IMG/VR virus record: IMGVR_UViG_2711768066_000004 | Location: 1 to 24,518 of that record | From: a virus | Taxonomy: Duplodnaviria > Heunggongvirae > Uroviricota > Caudoviricetes | DNA: 24,518 bases | Reading direction: 5' to 3' (one strand) | Shown here: in pieces, positions 1-24,518 of the stretch | Numbering within the stretch: position 1 is the stretch's first letter | Layout: each line of letters begins with the position of its first letter | The notes under the pieces: model-generated | Database searches by the model: none | What the model was told of the DNA's origin: nothing | The model's input: only the letters and a program-made list of their open reading frames with translations | Made by a program: the position numbers and the translations under genes

Positions 1-241
1 AAATCGTGTTGAGGCCAACGCCCATAATGCGGGCGGTTGCCCGGCATCCGACGCCATTCATGGCCATATCAATGATTTTCTGGTGCGTACCGGGTTGAGA
101 AGCGGTGTAAGTGAACTGCAGTTGCCATGTTTTACGGCAGTGAGAGCAGAGATAGCGCTGATGTCCGGCAGTGCTTTTGCCGTTACGCACCACCCCGTCA
201 GTAGCTGAACAGGAGGGACAGCTGATAGAAACAGAAGCCAC
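1..241 (-). CDS. insA: IS1 InsA transposase/repressor, N-terminal 80 codons (partial, runs off the window); GTG start
   Basis: Minus-strand translation [80 protein letters not shown] matches IS1 InsA as recalled. The 70-aa ORF 58..270 in the six-frame track is an alternative frame of the same DNA. Confidence 0.85.
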
Positions 242-296
242 TGGAGCACCTCAAAAACACCATCATACACTAAATCAGTAAGTTGGCAGCATCACC
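1..296 (-). mobile_element. IS1: IS1 insertion sequence, partial copy (left terminal ~296 bp of the 768-bp element; remainder lies outside the window), inverted relative to the right-hand copy
   Basis: Positions 274..296 are the reverse complement of the IS1 terminal inverted repeat GGTGATGCTGCCAACTTACTGAT. Bases 2..296 are the exact reverse complement of 24224..24518. The minus strand encodes the InsA N-terminus. Confidence 0.93.
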
Positions 297-708
297 TAAA
301 ATGTGTAGTTGGTGAAACTATTACTCTTGAAATATCAGAAATGATGTCTTCTTGAACTTGCCGATAAAGTAAATCCTTTGGGTAATGGTGTTTGATCTCG
401 ATGGTTGCAACATTGCCATTATGTTCAGACGTTAATATCGACTGGTTATAAAGTGATATGTCAACAGCGCCGATACCGAGTTTTGGATGCTCACTTAAAG
501 CAGTTAGTGTGCTGATTTGATTGAGAATAACAACTAACTCATCACGTATTTGAGTTTCATGTTTGCGATTGTAGAAGTAGCAATTCAGTTCATTTAACTT
601 TTTATGCATCCTATCGTGACTAATTGCTTCGATCAGTAAATCCTGAATCATACTTTTCTCTAGGTAATCCGAACGGTTGTAAGTGACAGTATTGTGCTGG
701 CATGTCAT
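292..708 (-). CDS. Hypothetical protein in low-GC cargo, likely C-terminally truncated by the IS1 insertion; contains a PD-(D/E)xK-like pattern (GAVDIS...ATIEIKHH)
   Basis: 138-aa ORF; its last codon and stop (292..297) overlap the IS1 terminus at 296, so the native C-terminus is probably missing. No Shine-Dalgarno at the first ATG; an alternative start is Met20 (649..651). Nuclease-like motif is read by eye only. Confidence 0.5.
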   Translation of the reverse strand: MTCQHNTVTYNRSDYLEKSMIQDLLIEAISHDRMHKKLNELNCYFYNRKHETQIRDELVVILNQISTLTALSEHPKLGIGAVDISLYNQSILTSEHNGNVATIEIKHHYPKDLLYRQVQEDIISDISRVIVSPTTHFR

Positions 709-751
709 TAGTATGTAAAGGTATTGTGAATGCCAGCAAGATAACGAAGTA

Positions 752-1087
752 TCATCGATAGAAAAACTTTACGGCCCACTCGTAAACCGCTTTGTAAATC
801 GGTTCATGGTAAATACTATCGATACTATTCAGATGTGCGATCATCGCCTCCACAGTTGTAGTGGTTGTTTCTAATATTTCGATTATTGCAGGGCGGTCAT
901 CATCTTCATCGAAGTATTCGAACAGCAGTACAGGTTTACCATGCCATTCAGCATCTGAGACTCTAAGGTTACAACTACCGCTCAACTCAAAGTGAATTTT
1001 GTAATTACCTTCTACAGAATGGCCTACGGGGAAAAAGCATAGGGTGTCATCTTTGTTTAAAAGCCATTCCCATTCATAACTATTCAT
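752..1087 (-). CDS. Hypothetical small acidic protein (111 aa from the SD-supported start; the ORF extends to 1105)
   Basis: ORF 752..1105; the internal ATG at 1085..1087 is preceded by AGGAG at 7-nt spacing, whereas the first ATG has no SD. Low-GC codon usage unlike the adjacent phage genes. Rich in D/E (EYFDEDDDRPAIIEILETTTTT). Confidence 0.55.
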   Translation of the reverse strand: MNSYEWEWLLNKDDTLCFFPVGHSVEGNYKIHFELSGSCNLRVSDAEWHGKPVLLFEYFDEDDDRPAIIEILETTTTTVEAMIAHLNSIDSIYHEPIYKAVYEWAVKFFYR

Positions 1088-1237
1088 TTGTGAACTCCTG
1101 TTCATTGAGTTTCAACAACTATCAACTACATCCAGCGAAGCATAAAAGATCGTTTATGGCAAAACCGGAGTGGAGTGCGATTCGATTCTGAGAAGGATGC
1201 CACGTATCGCACGCGAACCATCCAAGAGGATTATGCA

Positions 1238-1588
1238 ATGCCACCACGAACCCCAAAAGCCTGCCGCGTTCGCGGCTGCCCCCATACCACCACTGACTCG
1301 TCAGGCTATTGCGAAAGCCACAAAAGCGAAGGCTGGAAGCAATACAAGCCAGGCCAGTCCCGTCATCAGCGCGGCTACGGTTCGAAGTGGGACTGTATCC
1401 GCGCGCGTGTCCTGAAGCGTGACAAAGGCCTGTGTCAGTTATGTCTACGTGCTGGTGTGGTGCGTGAGGCGAAAACCGTTGACCACATCATCCCTAAAGC
1501 GCGTGGCGGCACTGATGCTGACAGTAATCTACAGAGCCTGTGTTGGCCGTGTCATAAGGCGAAGACGGCCCGTGAATGGCTGAAGTAA
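1238..1588 (+). CDS. Phage HNH homing-type endonuclease (terminase-associated)
   Basis: CxxC...DHIIP...N...LCWPCH motifs typical of the HNH/His-Me finger; sits immediately upstream of the small terminase gene as in many cos-packaging phages. Start chosen at the ATG preceded by AAGAGG (ORF track start is 1175). Confidence 0.8.
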   Translation: MPPRTPKACRVRGCPHTTTDSSGYCESHKSEGWKQYKPGQSRHQRGYGSKWDCIRARVLKRDKGLCQLCLRAGVVREAKTVDHIIPKARGGTDADSNLQSLCWPCHKAKTAREWLK

Positions 1589-1610
1589 GAACCAGTTCCC
1601 ACTGCCAGAG

Positions 1611-1674
1611 GGGAGGGGCGGGTCAAATCCCTGTGACCTGACGTCTTCCGGACTGCCCGCCCCATCGTTTTTTT
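1611..1674 (+). terminator. GC-rich inverted repeat (GGGAGGGGCGGG ... GCCCGCCCC) followed by a T7 run; putative intrinsic terminator or packaging-site-associated structure upstream of terS
   Basis: Inverted repeat arms at 1611..1622 and 1655..1663, with a TTTTTTT run at 1668..1674, in the HNH-terS intergenic region. The loop is long (~32 nt), so terminator function is uncertain. Confidence 0.3.
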
Positions 1675-1713
1675 ATACCCGCGAAAAATGAAATTTAACC
1701 AGGAGTGCCGCAT

Positions 1714-2208
1714 ATGGCTGGAACGGCGGGGCGTTCCGGGCGTCGCCCCAAGCCAACGGCGCGCAAGGCGCTGGCCGGAAACCCCGGCAAGCGAGCCCTG
1801 AATAAAGATGAACCTGTTTTTACGCCCATCAAAGGTGTTGAGCCACCGGAGTGGTTCGCTGAAGAAGATCTCCCTCTCGCCACGATCATGTGGCAACTGA
1901 CAACCAAAGAACTCTGCGGTCAGGGCCTGCTGTGCGTGACTGACCTCGCGGTGCTTGAGCGGTGGTGTGTGGCCTATGAGTTCTGGCGACGTGCCGTGAA
2001 AAATATTGCCAGACAGGGCAACACCATCACCGGCGCAATGGGCGGTATGGTCAAAAATCCTGAGCTGACCGCCAAAAAAGAACAGGAGTCCGAGATGAGC
2101 AGTACGGGGGCAATGCTCGGACTCGACCCCAGCAGCCGCCAGCGTCTGATTGGCCTGGCGGGGCAGAAGAAAGCCACTAACCCGTTTCTGAAAATTATCG
2201 AATCATGA
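1714..2208 (+). CDS. Terminase small subunit (P27 family)
   Basis: Sequence [34 protein letters not shown] resembles P27-family small terminases. AGGAG SD 8 nt upstream of the ATG at 1714 (ORF track start 1705). Stop overlaps the terL start (ATGA). Confidence 0.75.
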
Positions 2209-3938
2209 GCCGGAAATCTTACCCCAACGTAAATGCTGCCAATCAGTATGCCCGGGATGTCGTTCGCGGAAAGATTGTGGCCTGCCAGTTTGTGATTCAG
2301 GCCTGCCAGCGCCATCTTGATGACCTGATGGCGGAAAAAAGTAAGTCGTTTCGTTACCGCTTCGACAAGGACCTGGCTGAACGGGCCGCCAAATTTATTC
2401 AGCTGTTGCCGCATACCAAGGGTGAGTGGGCATTCAAACGGATGCCCATCACGCTGGAGCCGTGGCAGCTCTTTGTGATCTGCTGTGCGTTTGGCTGGGT
2501 CAATAAAGGTACCCGGCTGCGCCGCTTCCGGGAGGTGTATACCGAAATCCCCCGTAAGAACGGCAAATCGGCAATCTCTGCCGGTGTCGCCCTGTATTGT
2601 TTTGCCTGTGATAACGAGTTTGGCGCGGAAGTGTATTCCGGTGCCACGACAGAGAAACAGGCGTGGGAAGTCTTTCGCCCGGCGCGACTGATGTGTAAAC
2701 GCACACCCATGCTGACGGAAGCGTTCGGGATTGAGGTTAACGCCTCAAACATGAACCGTCCGGAGGATGGCGCGCGGTTTGAGCCGCTGATCGGTAACCC
2801 CGGTGATGGTTCATCACCCCACTGTGCGGTGGTGGATGAATATCACGAGCATGCCACCGATGCACTTTACACCACGATGCTTACCGGGATGGGGGCGCGA
2901 CGTCAGCCACTGATGTGGGCCATCACCACCGCCGGGTACAACATTGAGGGGCCGTGCTACGACAAGCGGCGGGAAGTTCTCGAGATGCTCAACGGTTCGG
3001 TACCCAACGATGAACTGTTCGGGATCATCTATACCGTTGACGAAGGCGATGACTGGACCGACCCGCAGGTGCTGGAAAAAGCCAATCCAAATATTGGCGT
3101 GTCGGTTTATCGCGAATTTTTGTTAAGTCAGCAGCAGCGTGCGAAAAATAACGCCCGTCTGGCAAACGTCTTTAAAACAAAACACCTCAATATCTGGGTG
3201 TCGGCGCGTTCGGCGTATTTCAACCTGGTGAGCTGGCAGAGCTGCGAGGATAAATCACTGACCCTTGAGCAGTTCGAGGGGCAGCCGTGCATTCTGGCCT
3301 TTGACCTGGCGCGTAAGCTGGATATGAACAGCATGGCGCGACTTTATACCCGCGAGATTGACGGTAAAACGCATTACTACAGTGTGGCCCCGCGTTTCTG
3401 GGTACCGTATGACACGGTGTACAGCGTCGAGAAAAATGAAGATCGACGGACAGCCGAACGCTTTCAGAAATGGGTGGAAATGGGCGTTCTGACCGTTACC
3501 GATGGTGCGGAAGTGGATTATCGCTACATCCTCGAGGAGGCCAAAGCGGCGAACAAAATCAGCCCGGTCAGTGAGTCACCCATCGACCCCTTCGGGGCGA
3601 CCGGGTTGTCACATGACCTTGCTGATGAAGACCTGAATCCCGTCACTATCGTCCAGAACTTCACCAATATGTCCGACCCGATGAAAGAGCTGGAAGCGGC
3701 GATTGAATCGGGACGTTTTCATCATGACGGCAATCCCATCATGACCTGGTGTATCGGCAACGTGGTCGGCAAAACCATTCCGGGTAACGATGATGTGGTG
3801 AAGCCCGTCAAAGAGCAGGCGGAAAACAAAATCGATGGTGCAGTTGCGCTGATTATGGCGGTTGGCAGAGCCATGCTGTACGAGAAAGAAGACACGCTGT
3901 CTGACCACATTGAGTCCTATGGGATCCGCTCGCTTTAA
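2205..3938 (+). CDS. Terminase large subunit
   Basis: 577 aa with a Walker A-like NGKS motif and a C-terminal nuclease-like region; position directly after terS and before portal. Confidence 0.88.
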
Positions 3939-3949
3939 CTGAGGTAATT

Positions 3950-4132
3950 ATGATCATGCTGATTCTCGCGCCTCTGGTGGGCGTGCTGGGGGCGCTTTTG
4001 CTGGCGTATGGTGCCTGGCTGATTTATCCCCCGGCGGGGTTTGTTGTTGCCGGGGCGTTGTGCCTGTTCTGGTCGTGGCTGGTGGCGCGATATCTCGACC
4101 GTACACAGTCGTCTGCCGGCGGAGGTAAATAG
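3950..4132 (+). CDS. Small hydrophobic protein (two predicted TM helices)
   Basis: 60 aa, [49 protein letters not shown]; GAGG SD upstream; wedged between terL and portal. Confidence 0.45.
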
Positions 4133-5373
4133 TGTTCTTTTCGGGATTATTTCAACGAAAAAGTGACGCACCGGTGACCACGCCAGCAGAGCTGGCGGAT
4201 GCTATCGGGTTGTCCTACGACACCTATACCGGAAAGCAGATCAGCAGCCAGCGGGCCATGCGACTGACGGCGGTTTTTTCCTGTGTCAGGGTGCTGGCGG
4301 AGTCGGTCGGGATGTTGCCCTGCAACCTGTATCACCTGAACGGCAGCCTGAAGCAGAGAGCCACTGGCGAACGTCTGCATAAGCTGATCTCCACGCATCC
4401 CAATGGCTATATGACGCCGCAGGAGTTCTGGGAGCTGGTGGTCACCTGTCTGTGCCTGCGGGGAAACTTTTACGCCTACAAAGTGAAAGCATTTGGCGAA
4501 GTGGCTGAACTGCTGCCCGTCGATCCCGGCTGTGTGGTACCGAAGCTTAACAGTAGCTGGGAGCCGGTCTATCAGGTCACATTCCCGGATGGCTCCACGG
4601 ATGTACTGAGCCAGGAGGATATCTGGCATGTGCGCACGCTGACGCTGGACGGACTGGTGGGGCTGAATCCCATCGCCTATGCCCGCGAGGCAATATCGCT
4701 GGCGGCAGCGACCGAAGAGCACGGGGCCAGACTGTTCAGCAATGGCGCGGTGACGTCGGGTGTGTTGCGTACAGAGCAGACGCTGTCAGATCAGGCTTAT
4801 GAGCGCCTGAAGAAAGATTTTGAGGAGCGTCACACCGGGCTTGGCAATGCTCACCGCCCGATGATCCTTGAGATGGGGCTGGACTGGAAGTCGATGGCGC
4901 TGAACGCCGAGGACAGCCAGTTCCTGGAAACCCGCAGGTTTCAGCTTGAAGAAATCTGTCGTCTGTTCCGGGTGCCGTTGCACATGGTGCAGAACACCGA
5001 TCGCGCCACCTTCAACAATATCGAAGAGCTGGGGCTGGGATTTATCAACTATTCACTGGTGCCGTATCTGACCCGCATCGAACAGCGGATCAACACCGGA
5101 CTGGTACGAAAAAGTAAGCAGGGCGTTTATTACGCCAAATTTAACGCCGGGGCGTTACTGCGCGGGGATATGAAGTCCCGTTTTGAAGCCTACGCCACCG
5201 GGATCAACTGGGGAATTTACTCTCCCAATGACTGCCGCGACCTGGAAGATATGAATCCGCGTCCCGGTGGTGATGTCTATCTCACACCGATGAACATGAC
5301 CACGAAACCCTCCGATGGCAGTAAAGCCGGTAAGCAGAAGGATAACGCCAATGCAGACGAAACAACGTCTTGA
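4132..5373 (+). CDS. Portal protein (HK97 family)
   Basis: 413 aa; position after terminase; sequence features typical of HK97-family portals. Probable GTG start at 4132 preceded by GGAGGT. Confidence 0.85.
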   Translation: MFFSGLFQRKSDAPVTTPAELADAIGLSYDTYTGKQISSQRAMRLTAVFSCVRVLAESVGMLPCNLYHLNGSLKQRATGERLHKLISTHPNGYMTPQEFWELVVTCLCLRGNFYAYKVKAFGEVAELLPVDPGCVVPKLNSSWEPVYQVTFPDGSTDVLSQEDIWHVRTLTLDGLVGLNPIAYAREAISLAAATEEHGARLFSNGAVTSGVLRTEQTLSDQAYERLKKDFEERHTGLGNAHRPMILEMGLDWKSMALNAEDSQFLETRRFQLEEICRLFRVPLHMVQNTDRATFNNIEELGLGFINYSLVPYLTRIEQRINTGLVRKSKQGVYYAKFNAGALLRGDMKSRFEAYATGINWGIYSPNDCRDLEDMNPRPGGDVYLTPMNMTTKPSDGSKAGKQKDNANADETTS

Positions 5374-6001
5374 TGTACCGCTGAGTCTGAAATCTGTCAG
5401 TGACTCCGGTGAGTTTGAAGGGTATGGCTCTGTCTTTGGTGTAAAGGACAGCCACGATGATGTGGTGATGTCCGGGGCATTTGCTGCTTCCCTGCGGGCG
5501 TGGAGTGACAGAAAAGCGTTACCTGCACTGCTCTGGCAGCACCGTATGGATGAGCCCATCGGTGTTTACACCGAAATGAAGGAAGACGATGTCGGGCTTT
5601 ACGTCAGGGGGCGGTTGCTCATTGATGATGATCCCCTGGCAAAACGCGCACATGCACACATGAAGGCCGGTTCGCTAACCGGCCTTTCTATTGGGTACGT
5701 CCTGAAGGACTGGGAATACGACCGGACGAAAGAAGCCTTTCTGCTGAAAGAAATCGACCTCTGGGAAGTCAGTCTGGTGACGTTTCCGTCTAACGACGAG
5801 GCGCGGATCAGCGACGTCAAGAACGCGCTGGCCCGCGGGGAAATCCCCGAACAGAAAAAAATCGAAAGAGTCCTGCGTGATGTCGGACTCTCCCGTACCC
5901 AGGCCAAAGCATTCATGGCCGGGGGCTATGGCGCACTGTCCCTGCGCGACGCTGAGGATGTGGGCTCTGCACTGAATGCACTGAAAAATCTGAACTTCTA
6001 A
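5351..6001 (+). CDS. Prohead maturation protease (HK97 family)
   Basis: EGYGSVFGVKDSHDDVVMSGAFAASL motif region typical of HK97-type prohead proteases; AAGGA SD before the ATG at 5351 (ORF track start 5315). Confidence 0.8.
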   Translation: MQTKQRLDVPLSLKSVSDSGEFEGYGSVFGVKDSHDDVVMSGAFAASLRAWSDRKALPALLWQHRMDEPIGVYTEMKEDDVGLYVRGRLLIDDDPLAKRAHAHMKAGSLTGLSIGYVLKDWEYDRTKEAFLLKEIDLWEVSLVTFPSNDEARISDVKNALARGEIPEQKKIERVLRDVGLSRTQAKAFMAGGYGALSLRDAEDVGSALNALKNLNF

Positions 6002-6015
6002 TCAGGAGAAATACG

Positions 6016-7221
6016 ATGGCGGTTGATATTAAAGATGTCGAACAGGTCGCGCAGGAGCTGCAGCAGAAGTTTGACGACTTCAAAGCAAAGAACGACAAGC
6101 GCGTGGATGCGATTGAGCAGGAAAAAGGCAAGCTTGCCGGGCAGGTGGAAACCCTGAACGGGAAACTCAGCGAGCTGGAAAATCTCAAAAGCGACCTTGA
6201 AAAAGAGCTGCTTGAGCTGAAACGTCCGGCAGGTGGTGCGCAAAATAAACTGGCCACCGAGCATAAAGAAGCGTTTGTGGGCTTCCTGCGTAAAGGCCGT
6301 GAAGACGGTCTGCGCGATCTGGAGCGTAAGGCATTGCAGGTGGGCACCGATGAAGACGGTGGCTACGCCGTGCCGGAAGCGCTGGATCGCAACATTCTCA
6401 ACCTGCTGAAAGATGAAGTGGTGATGCGTCAGGAAGCCACGGTGATCACCGTTGGCGGTTCCGACTACAAAAAACTGGTGAATCTGGGCGGCACGGCTTC
6501 CGGATGGGTGGGGGAAACGGATACGCGATCCCAGACTGCCACCTCCAGACTGGAGCTGATTGAACCTCTCATGGGGGAAATCTACGGCAACCCGCAGGCT
6601 ACCCAGAAAATGCTGGACGATGCCTTCTTCAACGTGGAAGCATGGATCAACAGCGAGCTGGCAACCGAATTTGCCGAACAGGAAGAAATTGCCTTTACCA
6701 CCGGCGATGGTACCAAGAAGCCGAAAGGGTTCCTGGCGTATGAATCCACGGATGAAACCGATAAGGTCCGGGCGTTCGGCAAACTTCAGCATATTGTATC
6801 CGGCGACGCGACTGCGGTGACCGCTGATGCCATTATCAAACTGATTTACACGCTGCGAAAGGCACACCGCACCGGCGCGAAGTTCATGATGAACAACAAC
6901 AGCCTGTTTGCCATCCGTTTGCTGAAAGACACCGAGGGTAACTATCTGTGGCGTCCGGGGCTGGAACTGGGGCAGCCGTCCTCTCTGGCGGGTTACGGTA
7001 TCGCTGAAAACGAACAGATGCCGGATATCGCCGCTGATGCGAAAGCCATTGCATTTGGTAACTTCAAACGGGGTTACACCATCGTTGACCGTATCGGCAC
7101 CCGCATTCTGCGTGACCCGTACACCAATAAACCGTTTGTCGGTTTTTATACCACCAAGCGCACCGGCGGGATGCTGGTCGATTCGCAGGCCATCAAACTG
7201 CTGAAGATTGCAGCGGCGTAA
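6016..7221 (+). CDS. Major capsid protein (HK97 fold) with N-terminal coiled-coil delta/scaffolding domain
   Basis: 401 aa; first ~100 aa are coiled-coil (KDVEQVAQELQQKFDDFKAKNDKRVDAIEQEKGKLAGQVETLNGKLSELENLKSDLEKE); follows the protease gene; AGGAGA SD. Confidence 0.85.
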   Translation: MAVDIKDVEQVAQELQQKFDDFKAKNDKRVDAIEQEKGKLAGQVETLNGKLSELENLKSDLEKELLELKRPAGGAQNKLATEHKEAFVGFLRKGREDGLRDLERKALQVGTDEDGGYAVPEALDRNILNLLKDEVVMRQEATVITVGGSDYKKLVNLGGTASGWVGETDTRSQTATSRLELIEPLMGEIYGNPQATQKMLDDAFFNVEAWINSELATEFAEQEEIAFTTGDGTKKPKGFLAYESTDETDKVRAFGKLQHIVSGDATAVTADAIIKLIYTLRKAHRTGAKFMMNNNSLFAIRLLKDTEGNYLWRPGLELGQPSSLAGYGIAENEQMPDIAADAKAIAFGNFKRGYTIVDRIGTRILRDPYTNKPFVGFYTTKRTGGMLVDSQAIKLLKIAAA

Positions 7222-7228
7222 TCATTCA

Positions 7229-7248
7229 GGGGCGCGGAACCGCGCCCC
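7229..7248 (+). terminator. Perfect 9-bp GC stem (GGGGCGCGG / CCGCGCCCC) with 2-nt loop right after the capsid gene; putative attenuator/partial terminator
   Basis: Seen directly in sequence 8 nt after the capsid stop codon; no strong T-tract follows, so probably only partial termination or an RNA-stability element. Confidence 0.35.
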
Positions 7249-7270
7249 CTGTTCTGACGGATGAAGAATC

Positions 7271-7471
7271 ATGATCCTGAAACAAGATCTGAAATGGTCA
7301 CCGGACGGTATGCGTGTTGAGGTCATTCGGGCCGGTGAGTATGACGACGGGGCGCTGCCTGCCCGGGTGCAGGAGATTGCACTTCAGGCCGGGTTAGCAG
7401 AGCGCGGAACCAGTGCAAAAAGCAGTAAAGCGGCAAAAGAGAAAAAAGCCACGACCAGTAAAGAGGGCTGA
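7271..7471 (+). CDS. Hypothetical small head-associated protein with lysine-rich C-terminus
   Basis: 66-aa ORF in the correct orientation between capsid and connector genes; weak SD. Confidence 0.4.
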   Translation: MILKQDLKWSPDGMRVEVIRAGEYDDGALPARVQEIALQAGLAERGTSAKSSKAAKEKKATTSKEG

Positions 7472-7473
7472 GT

Positions 7474-7797
7474 ATGCTTCTGACAATGGAAGAGATTAAA
7501 GCCCAACTCCGGCTGGATGAGGATTTCGATACTGATGACCGTCATCTGCAACTGCTGGCCTGTGCGGCGCAAAAGCGGACGGAAACGTATCTGAACCGGA
7601 AGCTCTATGCACCGGATGAAAACATTCCGGACAGCGATCCGGACGGACTACACCTGCCGGATGATATTCGTCTGGGGATGCTGATGCTTATCAGCCATTT
7701 TTACGAAAACCGCTCGTCGGTTACGGAAGTGGAGAAACTCGACATGCCGCAGAGTTTTGGCTGGCTTGTCAGCCCGTACAGGTACTTTCCGCAATGA
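7474..7797 (+). CDS. Head-tail connector protein (gp6-like DNA packaging/connector)
   Basis: 107 aa; N-terminal MLLTMEEIKAQLRLDEDFDTDDRHLQLLACAAQKRTETYL resembles phage gp6-like connector proteins; conserved position. Confidence 0.65.
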   Translation: MLLTMEEIKAQLRLDEDFDTDDRHLQLLACAAQKRTETYLNRKLYAPDENIPDSDPDGLHLPDDIRLGMLMLISHFYENRSSVTEVEKLDMPQSFGWLVSPYRYFPQ

Positions 7798-8204
7798 AAA
7801 TTCGTCAGGCGCAGACCAGCGCAACCTACATCCTGCCGGACCCCGGCGAAATGAATAAACGCGTCCTGATCCGCCAGCGGGTGGATATGCCCGCGGATAA
7901 CTTTGGCGTGGAGCCTCAATACCCGGTTGCGTTCCGGGCATGGGCGAAGGTTATCCAGACCAGTGCCACCACCTGGCAGGAAACCGCGCAGACCGGAGAC
8001 GCCATCACCCATTACATCACCATTCGCTACCGCCGGGGGATCACTGCTGATTATGAGGTGGTCTGTGGTGACAGTGTGTACCGCGTGAAACGTCAGCGTG
8101 ATCTGAACGGAGCGCGGCGCTTTCTGCTGCTGGAGTGTACGGAGCTGGGCGAATGTAGGCAGAGTCACGGAGGCAGCAATGGCGACTCCCTTTTTTCACG
8201 TTGA
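7794..8204 (+). CDS. Head closure / head-tail adaptor protein
   Basis: 136 aa; ATGA overlap with the upstream gene; conserved position and size. Confidence 0.6.
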   Translation: MKIRQAQTSATYILPDPGEMNKRVLIRQRVDMPADNFGVEPQYPVAFRAWAKVIQTSATTWQETAQTGDAITHYITIRYRRGITADYEVVCGDSVYRVKRQRDLNGARRFLLLECTELGECRQSHGGSNGDSLFSR

Positions 8205-8685
8205 TGTTCAGCAGCCCGCCGAGATGCGCTTTAACCGCGCCCGTGTCCGACGGGCGTTTGTCACGATTGGGCAGCGTCATATGCGTGATGCCCGTCGGCT
8301 GGTGATGCGCCGTGCGCGGTCGGCACCGGGTGAAAACCCCGGTTATCAGACCGGACGCCTGGCTCGTTCGATTGGTTATATGGTGCCGAGAGCCAGTAAA
8401 AAGCGAGCCGGTTTTATGACACGCATTGCCCCTAACCAGCGCAACGGGAAGGGGAACCGGATGATCTCTGGTGACTTCTATCCGGCGTTTCTGTTTTTTG
8501 GTGTCCGGGGAGGAGCAAAACGTCGTCGCAGTCATCATCGTGGTGCATCCGGTGGCAGCGGCTGGCGACTGGCTCCACGTAATAACTTCATGGTGGAAAC
8601 TCTTGAAAAGAACCGCAGCTGGACACGCTATTTTCTGGCGCGGGAATTGCGTAAATCACTGAAGCCGGAGCGACGACACAGATGA
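8179..8685 (+). CDS. HK97 gp10-like tail-component protein
   Basis: 168 aa basic protein; GGAGG SD; conserved position in the head-tail joining module. Confidence 0.55.
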   Translation: MATPFFHVDVQQPAEMRFNRARVRRAFVTIGQRHMRDARRLVMRRARSAPGENPGYQTGRLARSIGYMVPRASKKRAGFMTRIAPNQRNGKGNRMISGDFYPAFLFFGVRGGAKRRRSHHRGASGGSGWRLAPRNNFMVETLEKNRSWTRYFLARELRKSLKPERRHR

Positions 8686-9242
8686 AACTGACGCCTGTTA
8701 TTGCTGCGCTGCGTGCCCGCTGCCCGTATTTTGAAAACCGGGTGGCAGGCGCGGCACAGTTCAAAAATCTGCCGGAGGTCGGAAAGCTGAGACTCCCGGC
8801 GGCGTATGTGGTACCGGGTGATGACTCTCCGGGAGAAAACAAAAGCCAGACCGACTACTGGCAGGAGCTGAAAGAGGGCTTCTCCGTGGTTGTCATACTG
8901 AGTAACGGGCGTGATGAGCGCGGTCAGTTTGCTTCGTATGATGTGGTGGACGATGTCCGGCAGATGCTCTTTAAGGCCCTGCTGGGCTGGAACCCGGAGG
9001 CGTGCGGTAACCCGATTACCTATGACGGCGGCACGCTGCTGGATCTGAATCGTCATGAGCTGATTTATCAGTTCGATTTTTCGGTCATCAGCGAGCTGAC
9101 TGAAGACGATACCCGCCAGCAGGATGATCTGAACAGTCTGGATGAACTGCAAACGCTGGCGATTGATGTTGATTATCTCGAGCCCGGTAACGGGCCTGAC
9201 GGCGATATCGAACATCACACCGAAATAACCCTTCCTTCCTGA
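8682..9242 (+). CDS. Neck / tail-completion (sheath terminator-like) protein, Mu-type
   Basis: 186 aa; ATGA overlap with the upstream gene; position immediately before the small pre-sheath ORF and the sheath gene. Confidence 0.45.
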   Translation: MKLTPVIAALRARCPYFENRVAGAAQFKNLPEVGKLRLPAAYVVPGDDSPGENKSQTDYWQELKEGFSVVVILSNGRDERGQFASYDVVDDVRQMLFKALLGWNPEACGNPITYDGGTLLDLNRHELIYQFDFSVISELTEDDTRQQDDLNSLDELQTLAIDVDYLEPGNGPDGDIEHHTEITLPS

Positions 9243-9250
9243 GGATCCTC

Positions 9251-9418
9251 ATGTTTGTCAAACCTGTTAAAGGGCGGTCAGTTCCTGATCCTGCCCGCGG
9301 CGACCTTTTGCCCGCCGAAGGGCGAAATGTTGACGAGAACAACTACTGGCTGCGCCGTGAAGCAGCGGGTGATATCCGGCGCGTGAATAAAAAGGTGAAC
9401 ACCGATGACGATAAGCTT
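9251..9418 (+). CDS. Small conserved pre-sheath protein (55 aa; not in the supplied ORF track because it is under 60 aa)
   Basis: Read directly from sequence as ATG..TAA, MFVKPVKGRSVPDPARGDLLPAEGRNVDENNYWLRREAAGDIRRVNKKVNTDDDKL; overlaps the sheath start. A small ORF at this position is common in Mu-like tail clusters. Confidence 0.45.
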
Positions 9419-10901
9419 TAACACCATTCCGTCGAATACGCTGGTTCCGCTGTTTTATGCGGAAATGGATAACCAGGCGGCGAATACTGCACAGGACAGC
9501 GGAGCATCGCTGCTGATTGGTCATGCCAATAACGGTGCAGAGATTGTTGCCAACAGTCTGGTACTGATGCCGTCGGCAGACTATGCACGCCAGATTTGTG
9601 GTGCGGGAAGTCAGCTGGCGCGTATGGTCGAGGCTTATCGCCAGACCGACCCGTTTGGCGAGCTGTATGTGATTGCCGTTCCTGAATCCACAGGCGCGGC
9701 GGCAACGGTTACGCTGACGGTGACCGGGGAGGCAACCGAAACCGGCACGGTGAATGTCTATGTGGGACGTACCCGCGTGCAGGCTCCGGTGACCAACGGC
9801 GATAACGTCACGACGATTGCCAGCAGTATCAAAGATGCCATCAATGCCGTTCCGGCCCTGCCGTTTACGGCTTCATCTTCGGCAGGCGTGGTCACACTGA
9901 CCGCGCGTCATAAGGGGCTTTGCGGGAATGAAATTCCTGTCAGCCTCAATTACTACGGCTTTGGTGGGGGCGAAGTGCTGCCAGCGGGCGTACAGATTGC
10001 CGTGGCGACGGGTACCGCCGGTACGGGTGCTCCTGTTCTCACCGGCGCGGTGGCTGCAATGGCGGATGAGCCGTTTGATTATATCGGCCTGCCGTTCAAC
10101 GACACAGCCTCCGTTAACACGCTGGTGACCGAGATGAACGATACCAGCGGTCGCTGGAGCTATGCGCGTCAGCTGTATGGTCATGTGTATACGGCAAAGA
10201 TCGGCACGCTGTCAGAACTGGTGACCGCAGGTGACCAGTTTAACCAGCAGCACATTACCCTGGCGGGATACGAAAAAGAGACCCAGACGCCTGCCGACGA
10301 GCTGGCGGCAAGCCGTACCGCCCGCGCAGCGGTGTTTATCCGCAACGATCCGGCACGTCCCACGCAGACCGGTGAGCTGGTGGGTATGCTGCCTGCGCCG
10401 AAGGGGAAACGGTTCACGATGACCGAACAACAGACCCTGCTGTCTCATGGCGTGGCAACGGCGTATGTCGAAAGCGGGGTACTGCGCATTCAGCGTGATG
10501 TCACCACGTACAGGAAAAACGCTTACGGGGTTGCGGATAACAGCTACCTCGACAGTGAGACACTGCATACCAGCGCGTATGTACTGCGCAAACTGAAATC
10601 CGTCATTACCAGTAAGTACGGGCGTCACAAGCTTGCCAGTGACGGTACCCGCTTTGGTCCCGGTCAGGCGATTGTCACCCCGGCGGTGATCAAAGGGGAA
10701 CTGCTGGCAACCTACCGTCAGCTTGAGCGTGCGGGGATCGTGGAAAACTACGAACTGTTTAAGCAGTACCTGGTTGTGGAGCGTGATGCCAGCGATCCGA
10801 ACCGCCTGAACACGCTGTTCCCGCCTGACTATGTTAACCAGTTGCGTGTCTTTGCCGTGGTTAACCAGTTCCGTCTTCAGTATTCAGAGGAGTCTGCATA
10901 A
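9405..10901 (+). CDS. Contractile tail sheath protein (Mu gpL-like)
   Basis: 498 aa; AAGGTG SD; followed directly by a 118-aa tube gene with TAATG overlap; size and order fit the Mu L/M pair. Confidence 0.85.
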   Translation: MTISFNTIPSNTLVPLFYAEMDNQAANTAQDSGASLLIGHANNGAEIVANSLVLMPSADYARQICGAGSQLARMVEAYRQTDPFGELYVIAVPESTGAAATVTLTVTGEATETGTVNVYVGRTRVQAPVTNGDNVTTIASSIKDAINAVPALPFTASSSAGVVTLTARHKGLCGNEIPVSLNYYGFGGGEVLPAGVQIAVATGTAGTGAPVLTGAVAAMADEPFDYIGLPFNDTASVNTLVTEMNDTSGRWSYARQLYGHVYTAKIGTLSELVTAGDQFNQQHITLAGYEKETQTPADELAASRTARAAVFIRNDPARPTQTGELVGMLPAPKGKRFTMTEQQTLLSHGVATAYVESGVLRIQRDVTTYRKNAYGVADNSYLDSETLHTSAYVLRKLKSVITSKYGRHKLASDGTRFGPGQAIVTPAVIKGELLATYRQLERAGIVENYELFKQYLVVERDASDPNRLNTLFPPDYVNQLRVFAVVNQFRLQYSEESA

Positions 10902-11257
10902 TGGCCCGTATCGGGGGAACCTGTTATTTCAAAATTGACGGTCAGCAGCTATCGCTGACCGGTGGCATTGAGGTGCCCATGAACAGGACGGTCAATGATG
11001 ACATCATCGGCCTGGACGGTTCAGTGGACCGCAAGGAAACTCACCGTGCGCCTTATGTCAAAGGGACCTTCAAGGTGCCGAAGAATTTTCCGGTGGGCAA
11101 AATCACCTCGTCTGATGAGATGACAATCACTGCCGAGCTGGCGAACGGTCAGGTCTATGTACTGTCGTCTGCCTGGCTGCACGGCGAAGCGAACCATAAT
11201 GCCGAAGAAGGCACGGTTGATCTTGAGTTCCACGGTGAAGAAGGGGATTACCAGTAA
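10901..11257 (+). CDS. Tail tube protein (Mu gpM-like)
   Basis: 118 aa; translationally coupled to the sheath gene; conserved position. Confidence 0.75.
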   Translation: MARIGGTCYFKIDGQQLSLTGGIEVPMNRTVNDDIIGLDGSVDRKETHRAPYVKGTFKVPKNFPVGKITSSDEMTITAELANGQVYVLSSAWLHGEANHNAEEGTVDLEFHGEEGDYQ

Positions 11258-11526
11258 TGAAAGAGCTTGAGTTAAAGAAACCGATTACTGCTCATGGCGA
11301 GACACTCTCCGTACTGGAGTTTGATGAGCCCACCGGGAAGGATGTCCGCGAGCTGGGGTATCCCTACCAGATGAATCAGGATGAGTCCGTCAGACTTCTG
11401 GCGCATGTGGTGTCGAAATACATTGTGCGGCTGGCGAAAGTGCCGCAAAGCTCTGTCGACCAGATGTCTCCGGCAGACCTGAATGCAGCGGCGTGGCTTG
11501 TGGCCGGTTTTTTCCTCCAGGCCTGA
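11257..11526 (+). CDS. Tail assembly chaperone (G-like, zero-frame product)
   Basis: 89-aa ORF between tube and tape measure; contains the slippery heptamer T_TTT_TTC near its 3' end. Confidence 0.7.
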   Translation: MKELELKKPITAHGETLSVLEFDEPTGKDVRELGYPYQMNQDESVRLLAHVVSKYIVRLAKVPQSSVDQMSPADLNAAAWLVAGFFLQA

Positions 11527-11675
11527 CGGCTGAATACCTCACTGATCGCTTCTTTGACTGCGCCAGCTACTGGCGCATTAATCCTTTCGAATTGCTGAAT
11601 ATGCCGATCAGTGAAATTCCCTTACTGGTCAGTCAGGCAAACAGGATAGAGCAGGAGAAACGCACACATGGCTGA
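11257..11675 (+). CDS. Tail assembly chaperone, -1 frameshift-extended product (GT-like)
   Basis: A -1 slip at 11508..11514 joins the 11257 frame to the frame of ORF 11493..11675 (...RFFPPGLTAEYLTDRFF...), ending at a TGA overlapping the tape-measure start. Confidence 0.6.
11508..11514 (+). promoter_or_regulatory. Programmed -1 ribosomal frameshift slippery site TTTTTTC
   Basis: Heptamer T_TTT_TTC in the zero frame (GGT TTT TTC), 10 nt before the chaperone stop codon; the -1 frame is open for 54 more codons. Confidence 0.6.
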
Positions 11676-13500
11676 ATTTGAGCTTAAGGCGTTGATCACC
11701 GGTGTCGACAGGCTTTCTCCCGCGCTGTCGAAAATGCAAAAGAAAATCCGGGGATTTAAACGCCAGGCGGAAGAAGCGTCACAGGGTGGGCTGGCGCTTG
11801 GTGGCGGACTGGCAGCGGGTCTGACGCTTTCCCTGAAATCTTATGCCGATCAGGAAAACGCCGCCACCGGGCTGAAAGTCGCCATGATGGATGCGAACGG
11901 CGAGGTTGGAAAGAGCTTTCAGGACATCAATAAACTGGCTATTGGCCTGGGTAACCAGCTACCCGGTACAACGGCTGATTTCCAGAACATGATGCAGATG
12001 CTGGTGCGTCAGGGGATCCCGGCAGAAAACATTCTTGGCGGTGTTGGTAAAGCGACAGCTTATCTTGCGGTACAACTGAAAAAAACACCGGAAGCGGCTG
12101 CCGAGTTTGCCGCAAAGATGCAGGATGCTACCGGAACGGCGTCAGAAGACATGATGGGGCTGTTCGACACTATCCAGAAGGCGTTTTATCTGGGCGTTGA
12201 CGATACCAACATGTTGTCCTTCTTCACTAAAACCAGCTCTGTTCTGAAGATGGTGAACAAGGACGGTCTTCAGGCTGCACAGAGCCTTGCCCCCATCAGC
12301 GTCATGATGGATCAGATGGGGATGAACGGGGAGTCGGCAGGTAACGCCCTGCGAAAAGTTATCCAGTCCGGATTAAGCGTTAAGAAAATCAGGGACGTCA
12401 ATAAAATCATGGCCCGCCAGAAACTCGGGGTACAGCTCGATTTTACTGACGGCAAAGGGAGTTTTGGCGGTCTTGATAACATGTTCAGGCAACTGGCAAA
12501 GCTGCGACAACTGACCGACGTTAAACGAACTGGTGTACTTAAGGCAATATTTGGTGATGATGCCGAAACCCTTCAGGTGGTCAATGCACTAATCGATAAA
12601 GGAAAGGATGGCTACGATCAGATCCAGCAGAAGATGAATAAACAGGCCAGCCTGAATAAACGTGTTCAGGCACAGCTTGGTACGCTGTCCAACCTGTGGG
12701 AAGCAATGACAGGGACCGCAACTAACGGCCTTGCGGCTATTGGCGGTGCATTTTCTGGTGACGCTAAAAATATCACGCAATGGCTGGGGGAGTTGGGGGA
12801 GAAATTCACGAAGTTTGCGGATGAAAATCCCCGGGTTATTCGCGGCGTCGTCGGGCTTGCTGCCGGTCTTGCGATTCTGAAACTGGGATTGATGGGCGTT
12901 GGCGGTGCCATCAGTATTGTCAGCAGGATCATGTCGATGACGCCGATTGGCATGATTGCGACGGCGATAGCCCTGGCTGCGGGATTAATTATCACTAACT
13001 GGGATGTTGTCGGACCTTATTTTAAGAAACTCTGGGAAACCATTGGTCCTTATTTTGAGGCTGGCTGGGAACTCCTTAAGAAAGTTTTTGCCTGGTCGCC
13101 GCTGGGGATGGTGATCAATAACTGGGGGCCGGTTGTTAAGTGGTTTCAGGATATGTGGGACAAGCTGAAGCCAATTATTGAGTGGTTTACCGACAGTTCC
13201 GGTGACACGGTCGATGCCATTAACTCTGCGCAGTGGGGCGCGGGTGCTTATGATGCTTATGGGACGGGAATACCGGCGCGGGGATACACACCTTATCCGG
13301 CGGTGGATCTGGCTCAGTCAAACAACGCCTCCGATGCCACAGCCCCGAATCCCTTCATGATTAACAAAGCTTCTGCGCCAAAAGTTGATGGTGAGATCAA
13401 GGTCTCTTTTGTGAATTCGCCTCCGGGTATGCGGGTTATGGAAACACGTTCTAGTGACATTGATATTAATCACGATGTTGGGTACACCAGATTTAGGTAA
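11668..13500 (+). CDS. Tail tape measure protein
   Basis: 610 aa, helix-rich with a hydrophobic/Gly-rich segment (GVVGLAAGLAILKLGLMGVGGAISIV) and a W-rich C-terminal region; AGGAGA SD; follows the frameshifted chaperone pair. Confidence 0.85.
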   Translation: MAEFELKALITGVDRLSPALSKMQKKIRGFKRQAEEASQGGLALGGGLAAGLTLSLKSYADQENAATGLKVAMMDANGEVGKSFQDINKLAIGLGNQLPGTTADFQNMMQMLVRQGIPAENILGGVGKATAYLAVQLKKTPEAAAEFAAKMQDATGTASEDMMGLFDTIQKAFYLGVDDTNMLSFFTKTSSVLKMVNKDGLQAAQSLAPISVMMDQMGMNGESAGNALRKVIQSGLSVKKIRDVNKIMARQKLGVQLDFTDGKGSFGGLDNMFRQLAKLRQLTDVKRTGVLKAIFGDDAETLQVVNALIDKGKDGYDQIQQKMNKQASLNKRVQAQLGTLSNLWEAMTGTATNGLAAIGGAFSGDAKNITQWLGELGEKFTKFADENPRVIRGVVGLAAGLAILKLGLMGVGGAISIVSRIMSMTPIGMIATAIALAAGLIITNWDVVGPYFKKLWETIGPYFEAGWELLKKVFAWSPLGMVINNWGPVVKWFQDMWDKLKPIIEWFTDSSGDTVDAINSAQWGAGAYDAYGTGIPARGYTPYPAVDLAQSNNASDATAPNPFMINKASAPKVDGEIKVSFVNSPPGMRVMETRSSDIDINHDVGYTRFR

Positions 13501-13507
13501 AGACGAA

Positions 13508-13529
13508 CAGGGAGGGCCGCCCCTCCCTG
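13508..13529. terminator. Bidirectional terminator hairpin (CAGGGAGGG-CCGC-CCCTCCCTG) between convergent tape-measure and moron genes
   Basis: Perfect 9-bp stem with 4-nt loop, 8 nt after the tape-measure stop and 4 nt after the minus-strand moron stop. Confidence 0.55.
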
Positions 13530-13532
13530 AAC

Positions 13533-13979
13533 TTACTGTGCGAACACGCAATTTCGGCCTGATGGGGAGCCGACAATTCTGGACATTTTTTCGCAAATAA
13601 CAGTTACCTGTTCTCCTTTTTTAAGAGCAGCAGCTGTTGATTTTTCAGAGTCTTGCATCTCCATTCTTGCTGGCATGAATTCATTTTCAGTTCTGAATTT
13701 AATAATTATAGAGTCAGTAAAGTCCTTATCAATGGATTGTACGATACCTCTAACGGCGATTAATTTACCTTTTAACTGTTCATCGGTAGCGACTTCATTT
13801 TCTTCATACTCTTTAAACAGCTGTCGAGCAGTAGTGTTGTAGATTTCTTTTTGCGGTGCCGCAGCTTCCGTATCGGATGAGTATGAAGAATTAGAGCCTT
13901 TATCGTTATTGCCTGCAAAATATCCAATAATCACCAACCCGATGAAAATATATAAAATCCATTTTAATAATTTCTTCAT
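13533..13979 (-). CDS. Moron: membrane-anchored protein with N-terminal TM/signal-anchor, Ser-rich linker and a C-terminal domain that looks OB-fold-like (tRNA_anti-like type, recalled by eye)
   Basis: 148 aa, MKKLLKWILYIFIGLVIIGYFAG...; very low GC; opposite strand to all flanking phage genes; AAGGTG SD 6 nt upstream of the ATG; own AT-rich upstream region and downstream hairpin. Confidence 0.75.
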   Translation of the reverse strand: MKKLLKWILYIFIGLVIIGYFAGNNDKGSNSSYSSDTEAAAPQKEIYNTTARQLFKEYEENEVATDEQLKGKLIAVRGIVQSIDKDFTDSIIIKFRTENEFMPARMEMQDSEKSTAAALKKGEQVTVICEKMSRIVGSPSGRNCVFAQ

Positions 13980-14089
13980 GTTATCACCTTAATGCTAATA
14001 ATTTATATAGTTACAAATGGTAATGGCTACCACTACAAATTATGGCATTACCAGTAAATATTACTACTGATAATAAATATGGGACTTAT
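13980..14089 (-). promoter_or_regulatory. AT-rich upstream region of the moron; putative sigma70 promoter
   Basis: About 110 bp of roughly 25% GC with TATAAA/TATATA-like -10 candidates on the minus strand; exact -35/-10 pairing not resolved by eye. Confidence 0.3.
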
Positions 14090-15418
14090 ATGACGTGGAA
14101 AGACAGACTTCAGGATGCGTCATTTCGCGGCGTGCCGTTTAAGGTTGAAGAAGAAAGTGCGGGAACCGGTCGTCGTGTGGAAACACATGAATACCCGAAC
14201 CGCGACAAACCCTATACCGAAGACCTGGGGAAAATCACTTTCCGCCCGTCCATCACGGCTTATGTGGTGGGAGATGACTGCTTTGACCAGCGTGATCGCC
14301 TGATTGAAGCGCTGAATAAACCCGGTCCCGGCACGCTTGTCCACCCGACATACGGTGAGGTGAAAGTCTGTGTTGACGGGGAAGTCCGGGTCAGCACATC
14401 GAAGAGTGAAGGGCGTATTGTCCGCTTTGACCTGAAGTTTGTCGAAGCGGGAGAACTCTCTTACCCCACATCAGGCGTGGCGACGGCGCAGACGCTGATG
14501 TCATCCTGTTCTGCACTGGATGACTGCATCAGTGACAGCTTCAGCGGTTTCAGTATCGATGGCGTGGCGGATTTTGTGCAGAACGACGTTATCGGTAATG
14601 CCAGCACAATGCTTGGGTATGTTTCTGATGCGATGAAAGTGGTGGATTCTGCTGTATCGGATGCCGCCAGGCTGTTGCAGGGGGATATCTCGGTACTTCT
14701 GCCGCCGCCATCGTCAGGAAAAAATTTCGTTGAGCAGGTGCAGAAAATGTGGCGTACCGGTAAACGCCTTTATGGTAACGCCAGCGACCTGGTCACCATG
14801 ATCAAAATGCTTTCCGGTGTCAGCCTCGGCAGCGATTTGCAACCGCGCGGCGTCTGGAAAACGGACAGTAAAACCACCGCCACAGCGACGCAGCAGCGTA
14901 ACGTGGTTGCCAGCACTCTTCGTACGACTGCAATCAGCGAAGCGGCGTATGCCGTCACACGATTGCCTGCGCCAACAACTCCCGCGGTGATGCAGAATGC
15001 CGCAGTGGGGCAGTCAACAACACCCGCGCAGAGCACCGGCTGGCCTTCCGTCACGCATCCGGCACTGAACAATGCACCTGCGGTGAAAAACACGGTTGAC
15101 CTGCCAACGTGGGAAGAACTGACCGACATTCGCGACACACTGAATACGGCAATTGATAAGGAGTTGTCCCGTACAACCAGTGATGCGCTGTTTCTGGCGC
15201 TGCGCCGGGTGAAAGCAGATCTGAATGCGGATATCAACACGCGCCTTGAACAGTCTGCGCGGATCATTCAGCGCACGCCGGATGAGGTTTTACCCGCGCT
15301 GGTGCTGGCGGCGACCTGGTTTGATAACGCGGCGCGTGACGTGGACCTTATCCGGCGTAATGCTATTACGCATCCCGGCTTTGTGCCGGTGATCCCTCTG
15401 AAGGTGCCAGTGCAATGA
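14090..15418 (+). CDS. DNA circularization protein (Mu gpN-like)
   Basis: Contains WKDRLQDASFRGVPFKVEEE near the N-terminus; position after the tape measure. Start placed at 14090 because the first 16 codons of the 14042 ORF have moron-like AT-rich composition. Confidence 0.7.
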   Translation: MTWKDRLQDASFRGVPFKVEEESAGTGRRVETHEYPNRDKPYTEDLGKITFRPSITAYVVGDDCFDQRDRLIEALNKPGPGTLVHPTYGEVKVCVDGEVRVSTSKSEGRIVRFDLKFVEAGELSYPTSGVATAQTLMSSCSALDDCISDSFSGFSIDGVADFVQNDVIGNASTMLGYVSDAMKVVDSAVSDAARLLQGDISVLLPPPSSGKNFVEQVQKMWRTGKRLYGNASDLVTMIKMLSGVSLGSDLQPRGVWKTDSKTTATATQQRNVVASTLRTTAISEAAYAVTRLPAPTTPAVMQNAAVGQSTTPAQSTGWPSVTHPALNNAPAVKNTVDLPTWEELTDIRDTLNTAIDKELSRTTSDALFLALRRVKADLNADINTRLEQSARIIQRTPDEVLPALVLAATWFDNAARDVDLIRRNAITHPGFVPVIPLKVPVQ

Positions 15419-16494: not shown

Positions 16495-17042
16495 TGAGGA
16501 CGATTGAAGCCATGCAGCGACAACTCCTCGGCCTGATTGGGCGGGCCGTGGTGAAAAGCATCAGTGCCGCCACGAAATGTCAGACCGTGGATGTGTCCCT
16601 GATTGCCGGTGAACCCAAAGCCGGGGTTGAACATCTTGAACCCTACGGTTTTACCGCAAGGGCAAACAGCGGTGCGGAAGCGGTGGTGTTGTTTCCGGAT
16701 GGCGATCGTTCTCATGCGGTGGTTGTTACGGTGTCGGACCGGCGCTACCGCCTGAAAGGGCTGCAGACGGGTGAGGTGGCTGTCTATGACGATCAGGGGC
16801 AGTCCGTGACGCTGACCCGGGAGGGGATCGTGGTGGACGGTGCAGGTAAAACGATCACGTTTCGCAATGCACCTGAAGCACGTTTTGAAATGGACCTTGA
16901 AGTGACCGGACAGGTGAAAGACCTGTGCGACTCCGGCGGCACCACCATGTCAGCGATGCGGCTTGCCTATAACGGGCATCGTCACAGAGAGAACGGTCAG
17001 GGCAGTAACACCGACAAACCTGATAAAGCGATGGAGGCATGA
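16494..17042 (+). CDS. Baseplate assembly protein V / spike (Mu gp45-like)
   Basis: 182 aa; translationally coupled; conserved Mu order and size. Confidence 0.6.
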   Translation: MRTIEAMQRQLLGLIGRAVVKSISAATKCQTVDVSLIAGEPKAGVEHLEPYGFTARANSGAEAVVLFPDGDRSHAVVVTVSDRRYRLKGLQTGEVAVYDDQGQSVTLTREGIVVDGAGKTITFRNAPEARFEMDLEVTGQVKDLCDSGGTTMSAMRLAYNGHRHRENGQGSNTDKPDKAMEA

Positions 17043-19087: not shown

Positions 19088-19090
19088 TCC

Positions 19091-24223: not shown

Positions 24224-24518
24224 GGTGATGCTGCCAACTTACTGATTTAGTGTATGATGGTGTTTTTGAGGTGCTCCAGTGGCTTCTGTTTCTATCAGCT
24301 GTCCCTCCTGTTCAGCTACTGACGGGGTGGTGCGTAACGGCAAAAGCACTGCCGGACATCAGCGCTATCTCTGCTCTCACTGCCGTAAAACATGGCAACT
24401 GCAGTTCACTTACACCGCTTCTCAACCCGGTACGCACCAGAAAATCATTGATATGGCCATGAATGGCGTCGGATGCCGGGCAACCGCCCGCATTATGGGC
24501 GTTGGCCTCAACACGATT
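24224..24518 (+). mobile_element. IS1: IS1 insertion sequence, partial copy (left terminal 295 bp; remainder outside the window)
   Basis: Begins with the IS1 terminal inverted repeat GGTGATGCTGCCAACTTACTGAT at 24224; exact inverted duplicate of the left-edge copy. Confidence 0.93.
24279..24518 (+). CDS. insA: IS1 InsA, N-terminal 80 codons (partial, runs off the window); GTG start
   Basis: Same translation as the left-edge copy; the track ORF 24250..24462 is an overlapping alternative frame. Confidence 0.85.

Follow-up and report, generated by a model that had tools for sequence, protein, structure and literature searches.

An IS1-truncated accessory gene in a decayed prophage encodes part of a predicted PD-(D/E)xK nuclease, most likely a lysogen-expressed defence endonuclease when intact

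The window, that is, the whole 24,518-nt stretch of DNA analysed here, opens with one end of an IS1 element (positions 1 to 296, minus strand), made up of a terminal inverted repeat and the start of insA. Its identity was established from the sequence, from genome matches, and from the annotation of Escherichia coli ET474. The reverse complement of the terminal repeat reads GGTGATGCTGCCAACTTACTG, and the whole element measures 768 bp in ET474. A search with positions 1 to 296 returned thousands of IS1 matches, spread over 4,969 of 5,426 E. coli genomes; in ET474, the sole complete genome with an identical junction, the same segment carries the annotation IS1 family transposase. The last base of IS1 is position 296. 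When the window was aligned with intact prophages, homology extended from position 297 onward and did not include positions 1 to 296.

A minus-strand open reading frame (ORF) of 138 aa begins with the ATG at 708 and is closed by a TGA at 292 to 294 (292..708). As an earlier note on this DNA had observed, the frame enters the IS1 terminus: the TGA lies within the terminal inverted repeat GGTGATGCTGCC, which ends at 296. IS1 supplies this stop codon together with the two last bases of the final codon, the first base of which (297) is native. The 138-aa ORF named in that note exists, but its product is shorter. Because every homologue, the PGAP annotation, and the phrog_12494 profile begin at MIQDLL (window position 651), with the profile match starting at residue 20 of the long ORF, we take the real coding sequence to be 292..651 on the minus strand. 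Its 119 codons comprise 118 native codons and one hybrid Arg codon, followed by the IS1-derived TGA. The 19 codons by which the longest ORF extends upstream of MIQDLL to the ATG at 708 (652..708, minus strand), delimited by the alignment, PGAP, and the phrog_12494 profile, are probably an untranslated leader. A second low-GC accessory gene, of 111 aa (752..1087, minus strand; phrog_14397, a PHROG of unknown function), lies upstream on the same strand, and the boundary of the slot is a phage HNH endonuclease gene (1238..1588, plus strand), the first of a packaging module of HNH, P27-type TerS, and TerL. The GC content is 37.8% over 297..1155 versus 55.4% over 1238..20000, where the phage structural genes lie; the low-GC segment is foreign in composition to the phage genes, in agreement with the earlier reading.

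By Megablast, 80 of 5,426 complete E. coli genomes contain the low-GC segment, and about 75 of these 80 carry the gene at full length (570 nt, 189 aa; e.g., WP_000613840.1 in UMNK88). The intact frame continues for 71 residues past the IS1 junction (FIHIIQQRTR...NVYSFDN), and the last 215 nt of the nuclease-like gene are absent from the window. These data bear out the proposal that the native protein was longer, as the homologues do not end where the window copy does. The window allele (P0079, WP_370605919-like) encodes 119 aa, and this exact allele, ending in ...THFR, is recorded from 51 contigs. Among 11 intact alleles, pN/pS was 0.16, which indicates that they are under purifying selection and that the gene is a real one. 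Several other nuclease alleles have been disrupted independently (P0085, P0088, P0017, P0021, and P0022); in E. albertii the frame shifts near residue 110, another allele meets a different junction after residue 106, and others are truncated at the N terminus, near residues 70 and 84, and carry foreign sequence upstream.

The junction at 296/297 was found in one of the 5,426 complete genomes, that of ET474, which is 99.98% identical to the window. Beyond IS1 in ET474 comes the int/yfdT/yfdR early region of the prophage, at tRNA-Thr/proA, where the intact UMNK88 prophage is also attached. Alignment with the UMNK88-type parent prophage revealed one 768-bp IS1 in place of 10,443 bp. A target-site duplication was looked for at the ET474 IS1 and none was found, and alignment detected none of the missing prophage DNA elsewhere in the window. 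The junction described in the earlier note is therefore real, but the alignments indicate that the truncation arose by an IS1-associated deletion and not by a simple insertion. The lost 10,443 bp held the repressor, the replication genes, RusA, KilA-N, DUF968, Q, a caspase and TIR gene pair, holin, lysozyme, Rz, Rz1, and the 215-nt end of the nuclease-like gene. Because the repressor, the replication genes, Q, and the lysis genes are absent, the prophage is defective. In the intact prophage, both deletion end-points adjoin similar short sequences, GGATTTATATGGA and GGATTATATGGA (loci compared: L014 4375..5147, L079 12083, and L001 6001), and about 5 nt (AAAGA) are present at the left junction of the ET474 IS1.

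At the other end of the window, positions 24224..24518 hold another IS1 end, in the opposite orientation to 1..296, so that IS1 copies flank the 24-kb prophage remnant on both sides. Two further features of the remnant were noted. At 21461..23410 (minus strand), downstream of the tail-fibre genes, an intact gene with a GC content of 41.5% encodes a 649-aa GmrSD-family type IV restriction endonuclease (GmrSD_N, E 5e-34; GmrSD_C, E 5e-20), and it would be a second, apparently functional, defence gene carried by the prophage in the window. At 19091..21210, plus-strand tail-fibre and assembly genes face a minus-strand assembly gene and a tail-fibre C-terminal fragment, an arrangement that resembles invertible host-range segments such as Mu G and e14 P. 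In the intact UMNK88 prophage (L001 2761..4138), the caspase-family and TIR-domain genes lie antisense between the antiterminator Q and the holin, and the pair is likely a two-gene defence system.

The earlier note had not recognised the family of the protein, and database searches gave the same outcome. PHROGs places it in phrog_12494, a family of unknown function. Neither the truncated nor the intact protein, nor the 111-aa neighbour, had an above-threshold match in Pfam, NCBIfam, or PADLOC, and PADLOC v2.0.0 returned zero families for the truncated and the intact protein at E values up to 10. Sequence and profile searches of the PDB gave no match, and Foldseek found no significant match in PDB or BFVD. 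The gene was found by tblastn in none of 50,697 sequenced phage records, and neither the literature searched by protein accession or PHROG identifier nor the DefensePredictor supplements mention the protein. When 1.84 billion representatives were searched exhaustively with the profile, 42 proteins were recovered at E < 1e-3; at ≥60% identity there are 27 clusters, all from Enterobacterales, and a scan with tight alignment detected a close relative in 4 of 185,579 species-representative genomes. Six members gave sub-threshold Pfam matches over the core region, to five families (HSDR_N, PDDEXK_4, PDDEXK_9, DpnII-MboI, and DUF234), all of them in the PD-(D/E)xK clan. The best was HSDR_N in member P0030 (22.2 bits, E 1.4e-4; gathering cut-off, 25.1), and the DpnII-MboI match of one member was at noise level (E = 0.046); no curated family was matched significantly. 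The family is thus new and rare, the superfamily is very well known, and the prophage slot is of a known kind.

A PD-(D/E)xK-like signature had been proposed by eye for the ORF. The residues concerned are D64 (460..462), E85 (397..399), and K87 (391..393), with a D-to-E spacing of 21 residues. Because the same pattern arises in 8.6% of shuffles of the ORF, the mere presence of the motif is weak evidence, and it is invariance that makes it significant. We aligned 33 family members, down to about 20% identity. Among the 32 D, E, and K residues, K30, E32, D64, E85, and K87 alone are invariant in all 33, and these five are also the only invariant residues of the whole alignment. On the minus strand of the window they correspond to K30-H-E32 in core helix 1 (556..564), D64 of GAVD at the N-terminal edge of core strand 2, and the ExK motif E85-I-K87 in the middle of core strand 3 (391..399), as placed by the alignment and the AF2 model.

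The AF2 model of the E. coli protein, built with the family alignment, reached a pLDDT of 84 and a pTM of 0.85; that of P0048, a relative about 25% identical, reached 93 and 0.90, and the two agree in topology and in motif placement. The predicted elements are helix 1 (residues 29-46, with K30 and E32), strand 1 (50-53, which holds none of the invariant residues), strand 2 (65-68, with D64 at its start), strand 3 (80-89, with E85 and K87), helices at 91-107, strand 4 (117-127), and a C-terminal hairpin (163-187). Both models show the alpha-beta-beta-beta-alpha-beta core, with the C-terminal hairpin in addition, and the catalytic D on strand 2, the (D/E)xK on strand 3, and an acidic residue on helix 1 occupy the expected elements. 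A non-nuclease fold, which would have spoken against the proposed signature, was seen in neither model, but the nuclease reading found no significant Foldseek match. On the basis of motif invariance and predicted topology, and not of a curated-family match, the assignment to the PD-(D/E)xK superfamily is well supported.

Mapped onto the model, the fragment in the window retains helix 1, strands 1 to 3, helix 2, and all five invariant residues; it lacks 38% of the protein from residue 119, including strand 4 and the C-terminal alpha/beta subdomain (beta-hairpin). Because strand 4 and this subdomain are lost, the truncated product is, according to the model, almost certainly non-functional, and a folded, active enzyme from the fragment is very unlikely. 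The window gene is a pseudogene: the inactivated 5' two-thirds of a prophage accessory gene, in a decayed, IS1-bounded prophage.

To place the gene in its context, we surveyed 40 loci from E. coli, Enterobacter, Yersinia, Klebsiella, Citrobacter, Proteus, and viral contigs. The nuclease-like gene is convergent with Rz in 23, with lysozyme in 18, and with Rz1 in 16 of the 40 loci. On its other side it is divergent from packaging genes of unrelated types (HNH plus P27 TerS, Terminase_2, and Sf6-type), and unrelated terminase types stand next to it across E. coli, Enterobacter, Yersinia, Klebsiella, and Proteus. This position, between lysis genes and unrelated packaging types, indicates a mobile single-gene cassette that occupies one slot. 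The family is therefore a rare single-gene prophage cassette (a "moron"), antisense between the lysis (Rz/Rz1) and terminase genes. The same HNH-TerS packaging module occurs in about 1,110 E. coli genomes and the nuclease cassette in 80; elsewhere the slot is occupied by iss/bor or by small unknown genes. No methyltransferase was found among the conserved neighbours in the 40 loci, the UMNK88 prophage has none annotated among its early, regulatory, and lysis genes, and no methyltransferase domain was detected in the larger structural and accessory ORFs of the window that were scanned. A different cargo pair was seen in the Q/holin slot of a Yersinia enterocolitica prophage (L009 8281..10816), where a 501-aa protein with no domain match and a D12-class adenine methyltransferase are encoded antisense between Q and the holin.

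The two low-GC genes of the E. coli prophage share a strand and are separated by 100 nt. The 111-aa gene adjoins the nuclease-like gene in 8 of the 40 loci; in Enterobacter an unrelated 75-aa ORF takes the upstream position, and in Klebsiella and Yersinia no credible gene is found there. Moreover, the 111-aa family, which has no detectable domain, stands alone in the lysis/terminase slot of other enterobacterial prophages (L080-L087). A two-gene module was therefore rejected, the partner not being conserved and each gene occurring alone elsewhere in the slot; the 111-aa gene is an independent cassette. The earlier suggestion of a remnant of a small defence or toxin module thus does not hold as to the module, since a single gene is involved, and its defence or toxin part carries over as a reading that may apply to that gene.

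The 5' edge of the cassette holds a fossil. Positions 1156..1191 (plus strand) are 11 codons, MAKPEWSAIRF*, of a Terminase_2-type small terminase start, a mosaic-junction scar at the edge of the accessory-gene cassette. The host phage is HK97-like and uses the HNH plus P27-type TerS, not the Terminase_2 type. A MAKPDW start with its ribosome-binding site borders the cassette in 43 of 79 loci, beside otherwise unrelated packaging genes, and this conserved border suggests a recombination joint for cassette exchange. A conserved upstream TATAAT element was considered as the cassette promoter and rejected: it belongs to the divergent small-terminase start region (MAKPDW), and no promoter is needed to explain its conservation, since its CAT, read on the other strand, is that gene's start codon, next to the ribosome-binding site. 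In a promoter and terminator scan of the window copy, sites were no more frequent than in shuffles and no convincing promoter emerged; no Rfam family was detected in window positions 1..1700.

Other genes are known from this position. Lambda bor and iss occupy an antisense slot downstream of Rz, as the nuclease-like gene does, and in E. coli FRIK1989 iss sits in the slot beside an identical HNH-TerS module. Both encode outer-membrane lipoproteins for serum resistance and are lysogenic-conversion genes; they are unrelated to the nuclease-like protein in sequence, fold, and function. In phi80, taiEcA is an antisense gene of roughly 200 aa between Rz/Rz1 and the packaging genes that interrupts the Q-controlled late operon (PMC11364771). 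TaiEcA is constitutively expressed in the lysogen, and its position has been shown experimentally (PMC11364771); Tai homologues lie "predominantly upstream of the packaging module" (PMC11364771). Tai thus shares slot and orientation with the nuclease-like gene and is the best-documented defence precedent there; however, it blocks tail assembly and is no nuclease. Given the same slot, the similar size, and the naming of Yersinia frederiksenii in PMC11364771, the protein was considered as a Tai homologue. This candidate was rejected for want of homology: comparison with TaiEcA (phi80 orf63) gave a BLASTP E value of 0.54 and an hhalign probability of 0.5%, and tblastn of the gene against phi80 and other phage records gave no match.

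Known nuclease systems differ from the protein in other ways. The concept is common to Shedu (SduA, DUF4263), a single PD-(D/E)xK protein that acts against phages without a methyltransferase. Shedu proteins are about twice as long and carry a variable N-terminal sensor domain. Searches with our protein gave no match to DUF4263 or to the Shedu models of PADLOC. The best sequence-profile similarity, from helix 1 to the ExK, is to HSDR_N (PF04313), the nuclease domain of type I R subunits, but the protein has neither a helicase/translocase module nor HsdM/HsdS partners. Its lack of a methyltransferase is consistent with type IV restriction; it consists of one domain and shows no recognisable reader module. 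Among type II enzymes of the PD-(D/E)xK fold (R.SwaI, PDB 5tgq; BglI, EcoRV, and BamHI), SwaI is 13% identical, with no sequence-level relationship. In contrast to these enzymes, the nuclease-like gene is a solitary prophage accessory gene with no cognate methyltransferase in any locus, and it has no adjacent methyltransferase by which to be placed in a type II restriction-modification system.

Four other explanations of the intact gene were weighed. It might serve the phage cycle itself, as a nuclease for recombination or junction resolution, for host DNA degradation, or as a packaging accessory. Such a gene would hardly be expected to be transcribed against the late operon with a foreign GC content, in a prophage that already has RusA, or to be present in 0 of 50,697 sequenced phage records. 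Moreover, it accompanies no more than about 7% of packaging modules that are otherwise identical and also occurs next to unrelated terminase types; the gene is therefore dispensable for packaging, and we consider a phage-cycle role unlikely. Slightly less probable again is an orphan sequence-specific enzyme of type II kind, with methylation provided by host Dam/Dcm or by another phage methyltransferase. The best structural match is indeed the type IIP enzyme SwaI, 189 aa falls within the size range of small type II enzymes, and the close carriers all belong to the Enterobacterales, a Dam-positive group. Nonetheless, the fold match is silent on specificity, the DpnII-MboI match of one member, counted in favour of this explanation, is at noise level and not evidence, and no methyltransferase was found in the loci, prophage regions, and window ORFs described above.

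Very unlikely, in our estimation, is that the protein is not a nuclease at all and is instead a non-catalytic DNA binder, or has some unrelated function, with a coincidental motif and a superficial resemblance in fold: the five invariants form the canonical catalytic set at canonical positions in two independent high-confidence models, and every sub-threshold Pfam match over the core region falls within the PD-(D/E)xK clan. We give the least credence to a toxin-antitoxin or abortive-infection pair, in which the nuclease would be the toxin and the 111-aa protein its antitoxin or immunity factor. The spacing of the two low-GC genes on one strand in the E. coli prophage would suit such a pair, as would the independently disrupted nuclease alleles; however, about 75 of the 80 E. 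coli copies are intact, and the partner is present in just 8 of 40 loci, replaced by an unrelated ORF in Enterobacter, missing in Klebsiella and Yersinia, and found alone in the slot of other prophages. Conserved co-occurrence of the kind seen in toxin-antitoxin systems was thus not observed.

We consider it probable that the window holds a truncated prophage accessory nuclease whose intact form was most likely a lysogen-expressed defence endonuclease. The intact 189-aa protein would be a PD-(D/E)xK nuclease of the Mg-dependent type, from the uncharacterised family phrog_12494. Its gene, transcribed against the Q-dependent late operon, shares the arrangement of the lysogen-expressed genes lambda bor, iss, and phi80 taiEcA. 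The endonuclease, expressed in the lysogen, would attack incoming foreign (phage) DNA and act as a single-protein defence or superinfection-exclusion nuclease without a cognate methyltransferase. With no such methyltransferase, self-sparing would therefore have to rest on something else, for which modified or unusual DNA, host Dam/Dcm methylation, and activation on infection are candidates. In the window, the 10.4-kb IS1-associated deletion took the repressor, replication, Q, lysis, and caspase and TIR genes together with the last 71 codons.

For the intact protein we infer nuclease activity, expression in the lysogen, and a role in defence, and by analogy with the other occupants of the slot an anti-phage defence gene is plausible. 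Distant members of the family adjoin genes of the type found in defence islands (WYL/WCX, cpYpsA, SocA_Panacea, and PDDEXK_2/4), and the same prophage carries the caspase and TIR pair (in its UMNK88 version) and the intact GmrSD type IV enzyme. These defence-type neighbours and co-carried defence genes point toward defence. Among the distant members, at about 25-30% identity, those in L073 (795..1487) and L077 (858..1547) are followed by a protein of about 230 aa, with a PDDEXK_4 match in L073, which hints at a possible two-gene arrangement in the distant branch. Another member of similar identity lies in a defence-island-like neighbourhood (L075 1..6946; WYL/WCX, cpYpsA, SocA_Panacea, and PDDEXK_2).

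A bolder reading, which we offer tentatively and think doubtful as a whole, is that the intact protein founds a new single-protein defence family: a minimal, methyltransferase-less endonuclease expressed from an antisense slot, with an unconventional way of sparing its host, the slot being a general hotspot for swappable defence genes. Sparing might then come from a dependence on host Dam/Dcm, from phage DNA modification, or from the structure of injected or replicating DNA, and the hotspot may be one of lambdoid and HK97-like prophages that holds Tai, the nuclease, the 111-aa gene, and others.

Locally, these observations amount to genome archaeology; their value lies in a rare family that moves into a slot of lysogen-expressed defence and virulence genes. 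That family is unnamed, is under purifying selection according to its intact alleles, and has a complete PD-(D/E)xK signature while standing outside Pfam, NCBIfam, and PADLOC. Should the intact protein turn out to restrict phages with no methyltransferase to accompany it, the known defence nucleases would gain a new and very small member, and the lysis/terminase junction would gain support as a discovery hotspot beside those of P2 and P4.
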